From: Eremomyces bilateralis CBS 781.70
Taxonomy: Eukaryota
Length of the DNA: 64,000 nucleotides
NCBI GenBank assembly: GCA_010015585.1
Contig: ML975164.1
Strand: one strand, 5' to 3'
Shown: positions 31,065 through 31,800 of the stretch, one piece after another
Layout of the letters: the number at the start of each line of letters is the position of its first letter
How positions within the stretch are numbered: the stretch's first letter is position 1
Notes under the pieces: generated by a model
Database searches by the model: none
Told to the model about the DNA's origin: nothing
What the model saw: the letters and a program-made list of their open reading frames with translations, nothing else
Made by a program: the position numbers and the translations under genes

Positions 31065-31800
31065 ATGTCGCGCCCTGCCGCAGACGATTCCTGGTCTGAT
31101 GATGGGGATATTACCGGCACGGACTTTAACAACTCGTCGACATACCGAACGGACCTGAACGATACCCAGGATACTTCAGAGTGTGATTCGGATGCAGGAT
31201 TTGACGCAAGCCCCACCGGCCCAACATGGTTACTCGAAGGCAATGAGCATCCCCTGGAGTACTACAAACAGCTGCTCAAGAACTTTGACGACTCTGAGTA
31301 TACCAAGGAGGGCTACAGTAATGGAACTACCCTCCTCCTCGACCGGTCCGAAGCGCAGTGGTACCAGTGAGTAGTAGCGGCCTCTCTGTTCGCTCTGTTG
31401 TGAACTAACTCCTACTACCGCTACAGTCTGACCTAGACGATGTTCCTGTTTTTCGCAAAGCTATTAAAATATTAAAGGGATGGGAGATATCCCCGGATAA
31501 GCCGTAGAGTACTCGACCGTTCGGTATGCAATGAAAAAGGTTGGCGAGCTTACTAGGTTTAAGCTACCTCTACGTTTATATGCGCTCCGATACCGCGCTG
31601 GAAAGGCTTTCAATGAAAACAGTACATGGTCTACTCTCAGATGATACCGATCTTTAGGAAAGGAACTAATCCGAGTGGTGTAGGCAACGTCAGCGAGGAG
31701 CTGCAGAACTTGATGATACAGTACGGTGATGCGCGGACGTTCTTGAGACACTACCTCCATCGACGAGTAACAGTGGACGTTGCTGTAATCATGCGGCGAC
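31065..31800 (+). pseudogene. DUF3435 tyrosine recombinase (Starship captain-like) remnant, internally deleted and 3'-truncated
   Basis: Exon 1: acidic N-terminus, GNEHPLEYYKQLL...YSNGTTLLLD...QWYQ then GTGAGT; joined to DDVPVFRK...GWEISPD, YST..AMKKVGELTRF..RLYALRYRAGKAFN, NVSEELQNLMIQY...TFLRHYLHRRV. Confidence 0.8.

Follow-up and report, generated by a model that had tools for sequence, protein, structure and literature searches.

The window analysed here, a stretch of 64,000 nucleotides of contig ML975164.1 from Eremomyces bilateralis CBS 781.70, carries at positions 31065-31802 of the plus strand the relic of a DUF3435 tyrosine recombinase gene, i.e. of a Starship "captain", which was identified by Pfam profile search and tblastn. 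Converging with it is a UstYa-like gene (PF11807; 31918-32970, minus strand) with an intact 295-codon frame and RNA-supported introns at 32275-32323, 32485-32546 and 32670-32723, followed by the gene of P0019 (33482-33727, plus strand; upstream intron 33371-33421), an 81-aa protein whose hydrophobic N-terminus resembles a signal peptide. Spliced RNA contigs cover both of these passenger genes. The relic begins with an ATG at 31065, which is located 421-439 nt inside the left boundary of a unit of about 3.24 kb (30626/30644 to 33881/33884).

The captain likeness is distributed over four stop-to-stop frames of the plus strand between 31065 and 31991. A preliminary description of the locus had proposed a captain that is no longer visible as one open reading frame, its exon 1 being joined, after a large internal deletion, to the catalytic region, which is then truncated, and the Pfam and tblastn results bear out this arrangement. 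In the profile search, 31409-31507 matched PF11917 positions 141-172 with E 0.0037 and 16.7 bits, which is below the curated cut-off of 25.8 bits, and two further pieces exceeded this cut-off, namely 31501-31644 (positions 173-212, E 7.8e-8, 32.1 bits) and 31617-31991 (positions 212-251, E 4.1e-7, 29.7 bits), so that the three pieces together represent positions 141-251 of 418. The region 31420-31800, on which the proposal had been made to depend, thus yields significant DUF3435 matches. Exon 1 (31065-31370 in this search) had no match to a Pfam domain.

With the full-length paralogue P0001 as a query against the 64-kb window, tblastn placed residues 1-97 on 31065-31367 (69 of 101 positions identical), residues ~336-369 on 31403-31504 in a frame different from that of exon 1, residues 370-408 on 31504-31621 (33 of 43 positions identical in the reported stretch) and residues 409-448 on 31683-31802 (31 of 40). 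The remainder of P0001 was unmatched in the window, every other tblastn match having an E value of at least 4.4. In total, the relic retains about 210 of the roughly 730 captain codons and is 65-79% identical to P0001 and its paralogue P0002 in the aligned parts.

Read from its 5' end, the relic starts with exon 1 (31065-31366), which comprises 100 codons plus 2 nt in an intact frame and is 65-68% identical to residues 1-97 of P0001 and P0002. Exon 1 is followed by a GT..AG stretch of 60 nt (31367-31426) that is spliced out and is composed of the 5' part of intron 1, a deletion junction (31397-31402) and the former coding codons 336-343. Captain codons ~336-369 (31403-31504) and 370-408 (31505-31621) come next, the latter with a Y-A-L-R-Y motif in which Y395 and R398 are kept, and are separated from codons 409-448 (31684-31802) by a second GT..AG intron of 62 nt (31622-31683), which is also spliced out in RNA. 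The motifs named in the preliminary description (Y-x-LR-Y-x-AG, QNLM.Q.. and TFL.HYL) are present. At 31802 the captain likeness stops, 116 nt short of the stop of the converging UstYa-like gene, with a spacer between the two (31803-31917).

Lesions, decay and transcription of the captain relic

One lesion of the relic is the loss of codons 98 to ~335, with its junction at 31397-31402. A contig of run X4 is alike up to 31396 and then continues, judged by eye, into an intron-like remainder, and a contig of run X3 is alike from 31402, with a loose end whose translation by eye, LSMLDIEPG(Q), equals the stretch that directly precedes this point in P0001. From these loose ends around 31396/31402 we conclude that the deletion placed codon ~336 directly behind the 5' part of intron 1. 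In addition, a TAA stop is found at 31406-31408, where P0001 and P0002 both have Q337, and a 1-nt deletion at 31504/31505, which can be read directly from the sequence, shifts the frame. Position 422 is a histidine in 16 of 16 aligned relatives (P0008, with 1259 aa and 26% identity, was left out of this alignment) and a tyrosine in the relic alone (H422Y, 31722-31724); Y432 (31752-31754), ten residues further on and invariant in the alignment, is kept. Positions 1-140 and 252-418 of PF11917, i.e. the first 140 and the last 167 of 418, are absent.

The full catalytic set (R-K-H/Y-R-H-Y) does not occur in one open frame of the relic: Y395, R398 and Y432 are retained and H422 is replaced. We tentatively take Y395 to be the active-site Tyr/His, R398 the Arg, H422 the second His and Y432 the nucleophilic Tyr of this set. 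The assignment of these roles is based on the spacing of the residues, on a weak PF00589 match of P0001 and on a passage concerning HhpA Y381/Y416 in the available part of PMC10104507. Since parts of the domain and an otherwise invariant histidine are lost and the frame is broken, we conclude that the relic is unable to make a recombinase.

The preliminary description had also attributed several residue changes (QH>QY, M>I, P>L) to transitions of the CpA>TpA type. These changes are real and correspond to H422Y, M420I, P394L and P359L, all of which belong to the C>T/G>A class when compared with P0001 and P0002. Consistent with this, a RIP-like signature is centred on the relic and is the strongest in the window: between 31371 and 31800, TpA/ApT amounts to 1.40 vs 0.66 for the whole window and (CpA+TpG)/(ApC+GpT) to 0.74 vs 1.20, and when 1248 windows of 430 nt are ranked by a composite RIP index, the top five all overlap the relic, within 31151-31780. 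The next-highest values occur at other repeats, next to an hAT transposase gene and across an RNase H fragment. For the direction of mutation, we counted positions at which the relic deviates from a residue common to P0001 and P0002. Of the changes in the catalytic part, C>T/G>A alone can account for 11 and the reverse alone for 4, and 5 are explained by neither; the corresponding numbers for exon 1 are 7, 7 and 4. The relic therefore resembles a RIP-mutated repeat in its TpA/ApT value, its CpA/TpG ratio and its C>T/G>A excess.

The relic is transcribed and spliced, as indicated by GT..AG joints in contigs of run X3 from 31366 to 31427 (60 nt removed) and from 31621 to 31684 (62 nt removed), the former of which combines the donor of exon 1 with an acceptor within former coding sequence. 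No sequencing run is on record as RNA, and X3 is so called from its behaviour, because it has no depth in two intergenic bins (27110-28331) where run X1 has depth and because it shows GT..AG/CT..AC joints throughout; RNA level and RNA ends are not derivable from contigs. In the spliced relic, the frame runs through 100 codons, then H-L-T, and then a stop. The public annotation contains a 103-aa "hypothetical protein", P0022, with a sequence identical to this spliced product. The coding capacity of the relic is thus restricted to a 103-aa N-terminal peptide.

Full-length relatives and family placement

Among 74 candidate proteins of 178-2000 aa, exon 1 matched two, P0001 (731 aa) and P0002 (744 aa), which are DUF3435 proteins named for Eremomyces bilateralis CBS 781.70 and which are 66% and 65% identical to the relic across exon 1, respectively. 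P0001 has a complete DUF3435 domain at residues 198-603 (E 1.3e-136) and, at residues 366-435, a Phage_integrase (PF00589) match with E 0.0045, which is below the cut-off. A sequence comparison of P0001 with the PDB gave only two chance-level matches (E 0.13 and 1.2), and a search of representative sequences with 31617-31988 returned 15 matches, mostly to short predicted fragments and none with E <= 1e-10. Undeleted P0001 sequence is present in an RNA contig of run X3. P0002 shows a repetition of a 15-residue stretch around residues 430-460 that includes the conserved Tyr motif, and it differs from P0001 in a block near residues 175-200; either P0002 is also damaged or its gene model is off.

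In the available part of the starfish study (Gluck-Thaler and Vogan 2024, PMC11162782), 15 size-filtered tyrosine recombinases (YRs) and 0 resolved elements are given for E. bilateralis, and erebil1_465179 is listed as "tyr" and as a member of fam05, family 5 being Prometheus. The number in erebil1_465179 is the locus-tag number of P0002. A 'tyr5050' locus and P0001 are putative further full-length captains of family 5, and Table S3 of the study lists for E. bilateralis two "tyr" fragments of ~0.3 kb, located on two scaffolds, which may correspond to the two copies of the relic. Judged by its relation to P0002, its nearest full-length relative, the relic would therefore be closest to the Prometheus captains, as far as the accessible tables of that study indicate.

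Ends and copies of the unit

The preliminary description had regarded the relic as the left end of a decayed Starship. The left boundary at 30626-30644 is indeed common to other contigs, and the identity of P0002 with a fam05 entry in the available starfish tables fits such an origin; a left end alone is, however, not what we observe, since a right end follows about 3.2 kb downstream and the unit between the two seemingly exists twice. On the left side (30626-30660), a contig of X3 has a loose end before 30626, contigs of X4 are alike from 30625-30631, and a joint enters at 30644. On the right side (33852-33884), a joint leaves at 33881, loose ends lie behind 33881 and 33884, and the likeness to other contigs stops accordingly at 33881-33884. 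X4 comes from another organism that bears the same species label; its 10 contigs of 80-95% likeness cover 8 of 30 bins and bridge neither boundary, and no contig of run X5 matched the window. Several contigs match just 30644-30687 or 33834-33881 and then continue unlike the window, so that the terminal 44-48 nt of the unit are found on several contigs with dissimilar interiors.

The two ends carry an imperfect inverted repeat, with arms at 30642-30660 and 33852-33870, in which 17 of 19 positions are complementary. None of 987 random pairs of 71-nt windows scored higher than 11, compared with 13 for this repeat. When compared with the published terminal inverted repeats in the accessible starfish tables other than S11-S15, the core of the repeat shared no 8-mer and one 7-mer, which is at the level of chance; the published repeats measure 10-18 nt among the first 30 of 427 rows. 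Starships are bordered by direct repeats that reflect the target site; direct repeats at the edges of the unit amount to the 4-mers AACT, CTTT and TTTA, which are common to both edges at about chance frequency. The flanks are AT-rich, with a GC content of 0.38 and 0.34 vs 0.52 for the window, in which 6.5% of 100-nt windows have a GC content of <= 0.40, and most insertion sites of the Prometheus family are likewise described as AT-rich in the available part of PMC11162782. A search of the whole window against Rfam returned 0 families; hence, the putative insertion is not in a 5S rDNA or tRNA gene. The 5' region ahead of the captain ATG (30661-31064) takes part in a 16-nt direct repeat (30657-30672/30679-30694) and contains an inner CTGCCATC at 30699-30706. 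The motif CTGCCRTY, a pattern picked after the ends had been seen, has 4 of its 15 matches in 64 kb within the two ends of about 80 nt.

Evidence for a second copy comes from contig depth and from the number of contigs encoding individual genes. In X1, depth amounts to 154 in the left flanking contig (22295-31387) and to 149 in the right one (33834-39300), and the contigs inside 31358-33863, which break repeatedly, have depths of 253-320; contig depth is a weak measure of copy number, and X1, as it is possibly the sample behind the window's own assembly, does not represent independent support. An X1 contig with a depth of 310 (31358-31692) crosses the deletion junction, and this double depth suggests that the deleted form itself is duplicated. 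P0019, which is encoded inside the unit, is found on two contigs, and two genes outside the unit are each found on one, namely the adjoining SDR gene (34000-34992) and an HET gene 25 kb further on (59073-60917). The X1 contig 22295-31387 is continuous through the left boundary and P0022 is encoded on one contig only, from which we conclude that to the left of ~31358 the second copy is non-identical, so that it may comprise only part of the unit. All 13 differences listed between the copies are transitions; they show no preference for CpA (CG 5, CC 4, CA 2, CT 2), and the window has the A/T allele at 10 of them.

Two further contigs contain ends of this type. One contig, present in both X1 and X3 at about single-copy depth, joins 33837-33881 through 36 AT-rich nt to 30644-30688. 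A circular excision product was considered for this tail-to-head joint and dropped in view of the 36 nt between the ends and the roughly single-copy DNA depth; the joint more likely reflects tandem copies or a pair of family members separated by these 36 nt. Another contig, also found in X1 and X3, begins to match the left end at 30626, differs from it by 5 substitutions and 2 indels and, judged by eye, is alike past 30763. The same RNA contig carries at least 255 nt of unlike sequence to the left of this match and thus reaches beyond the end of that element copy.

Concerning the passenger genes, a search with the last exon of the UstYa-like gene against proteins of 208-2000 aa returned one relative, from Sticta canariensis (46% identity); the model from the window itself was not among the results, nor was a second copy. 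Exon 1 of this gene has a perfect 18-nt tandem duplication (32895-32930), which repeats six residues in frame. Among the 65 window ORFs scanned, there was no match to the auxiliary genes of Starships (DUF3723, FRE, PLP, NLR).

The wider window contains an open 848-codon frame at 16101-18644 (minus strand) that may encode an intact hAT transposase and includes an hAT C-terminal dimerisation domain (E 8.9e-19), with RIP-like composition just upstream (18501-19030). An RNase H domain fragment (10683-11450, minus strand) lies within a RIP-like stretch (10151-11450) and is probably a retroelement relic. At 22058-22316, the mean depth of the X1 bin is 4914, with peaks of about 12,000 vs ~154 nearby and loose ends on both sides, which marks a high-copy repeat. 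Alongside these transposon relics, two HET-domain genes are located at 8035-10005 (minus strand) and 59013-60917 (plus strand), and the region looks like accessory genome. Runs of N interrupt a RabGAP-TBC gene (39399-39673, 275 bases) and an F-box/WD40 gene (56980-57034, 55 bases).

Origin and significance of the unit

We consider it reasonably probable that 31065-31802 represents a dead yet transcribed captain within the ~3.24-kb shell of a deletion-shrunk, Prometheus-like Starship that is present in about two copies in the genome. A Prometheus-like Starship would have lost its interior through two deletions, one inside the captain and one extending from captain codon 448 into the cargo. The resulting shell would have retained both ends with their 19-nt inverted repeat, the captain stump and the last ~2 kb with two intact, transcribed passenger genes, and would afterwards have come to exist twice in the genome. 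The layout of the unit agrees with the definition of a Starship in the available part of PMC11162782, as its 5'-most gene is the captain, which is directed towards the interior, and the terminal inverted repeat is a feature that occasionally occurs in Starships. In its size of about 3.24 kb, the unit departs from Starships, which measure tens to hundreds of kb and often carry auxiliary genes. Further points that weigh against this origin are the merely chance-level direct repeats, the inverted repeat without a counterpart in the accessible starfish tables, the lack of auxiliary genes among the 65 scanned ORFs, the X1 contig that is continuous across the left boundary, the occurrence of P0022 on a single contig and the missing CpA preference among the differences between the copies.

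According to the accessible text of PMC10104507 (Urquhart et al. 2023), captain function can be supplied in trans, and undeleted P0001 sequence is present in an RNA contig; movement of the unit in trans would therefore be possible. On these grounds we tentatively put forward, as a more far-reaching and distinctly less certain version of the above, that the unit is a natural non-autonomous mini-Starship with a dead captain, cis-acting ends of at most ~50-140 nt and a cargo of a UstYa-like and a small secreted-protein gene, which could have been copied to the second locus by a P0001-type captain acting in trans.

The main alternative, which we regard as unlikely, is that ordinary chromosomal DNA harbours the relic as an orphan captain pseudogene, the second copy having arisen through segmental duplication or gene conversion and the inverted repeat being fortuitous or unrelated. 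Solo and pseudogenised captains are common, and the 15 YRs without a resolved element that the available part of PMC11162782 reports for E. bilateralis would fit this explanation, as would the lack of an identical left 0.7 kb of the unit in the second copy, the lack of a direct repeat above chance at the edges and the lack of auxiliary genes among the scanned ORFs. However, boundaries that were derived from contigs coincide with an inverted repeat that beats all random pairs, and the terminal 44-48 nt recur on contigs with unlike interiors, with the left-end likeness in the second organism (X4) beginning at 30625-30631. Moreover, the inner gene is found on two contigs, but the SDR and HET genes outside on one each.

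It is more improbable still that the unit belongs to another class of TIR transposon, which, like a Pack-MULE or a capturing hAT-like element, would have acquired two host genes together with part of a captain and would have been moved by the transposase of that class. Capturing elements of this kind are typically small, TIR-bounded, low in copy number and furnished with gene fragments, which applies to the unit as well, and an open hAT transposase frame is present in the window. However, as in a Starship, the relic points into the unit and opens with the native start codon of the captain, about 0.42 kb from the end. Furthermore, the other contig of X1 and X3 shares the left end from 30626 onwards and its likeness, judged by eye, extends past 30763, and no target duplication of the hAT or Mutator type is visible at the edges.

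That the relic has been kept for a function, with its 103-aa N-terminal fragment interfering with or regulating full-length family members in the way known for truncated transposases in other systems, is hardly credible, because even if exon 1 is the sole part with an intact frame, differs from the catalytic part in having as many forward as reverse changes (7 each), is transcribed with correct use of its splice donor and is annotated as a protein (P0022), an open frame of 100 codons in a young relic needs no selection, exon 1 lacks a domain match, and its relatives are two longer proteins and the relic's own annotation, among which no conserved short form was seen.

If the unit is a shrunken Starship, as we favour, it can be compared with several known systems. 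Like the Prometheus captains in the available part of PMC11162782, e.g. erebil1_465179, which corresponds to P0002, the relic has DUF3435 likeness, a Y-x-x-R ... H ... Y region and an N-terminal exon, and the putative insertion site of the unit is AT-rich as in elements of that family; unlike these captains, the relic has a broken frame and a replaced conserved histidine, and it lacks the C-terminal half, including the C2H2-like end. Starships that are degraded or "Derelict" form a recognised category (Gluck-Thaler et al. 2022, PMC9156397), and the unit shares with them, and with the captain of Wallaby (PMC11162782), a decayed captain, persisting cargo and the implication of RIP. Derelicts are, however, large, captain-less and recognised by their auxiliary genes (PMC9156397), whereas the unit measures 3.2 kb and has a captain stump and both ends but no auxiliary genes among the scanned ORFs. 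According to the accessible text of PMC10104507, an engineered miniHephaestus with a frameshifted captain was complemented in trans. This construct resembles the unit in combining element ends with a disabled captain and carries one cargo gene; in contrast to the unit, which is natural, it is an artificial member of the Hephaestus family, with flanks of 3.8 kb and 1.9 kb. Natural mini-Sanctuary elements, which have lost most of their cargo and kept the end repeat of their family, are described in the available part of 10.1101/2024.03.04.583430 and are, like the unit, naturally shortened Starships. The captain of our unit is dead, and its size is far below the 15,020 bp of the smallest element in the starfish census, as given in the accessible part of PMC11162782.

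Many predicted YRs may be pseudogenes according to the same part of PMC11162782, and a pseudogenised captain by itself is ordinary. The new part is the 3.2-kb shell with two ends and two copies, which we regard as moderately interesting. A full-text search of the freely accessible literature found no captain-dead Starship shell of a few kb, and in passages from some of the matching papers "non-autonomous" described transposons other than Starships. As captain-based annotation pipelines filter out such fragments, similar shells would go uncounted.

If the shell is a true deletion derivative with both ends, it would narrow down the cis requirements of a Starship and would indicate that a giant element can shrink into a packet of two genes. 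If its second copy arose by transposition, the unit would be the natural counterpart of the engineered, trans-rescued mini-element with a frameshifted captain. And if it was mobilised in trans, this would be the first natural MITE-like behaviour in Starships, by which cargo would spread in packets about five times smaller than any element of the census.
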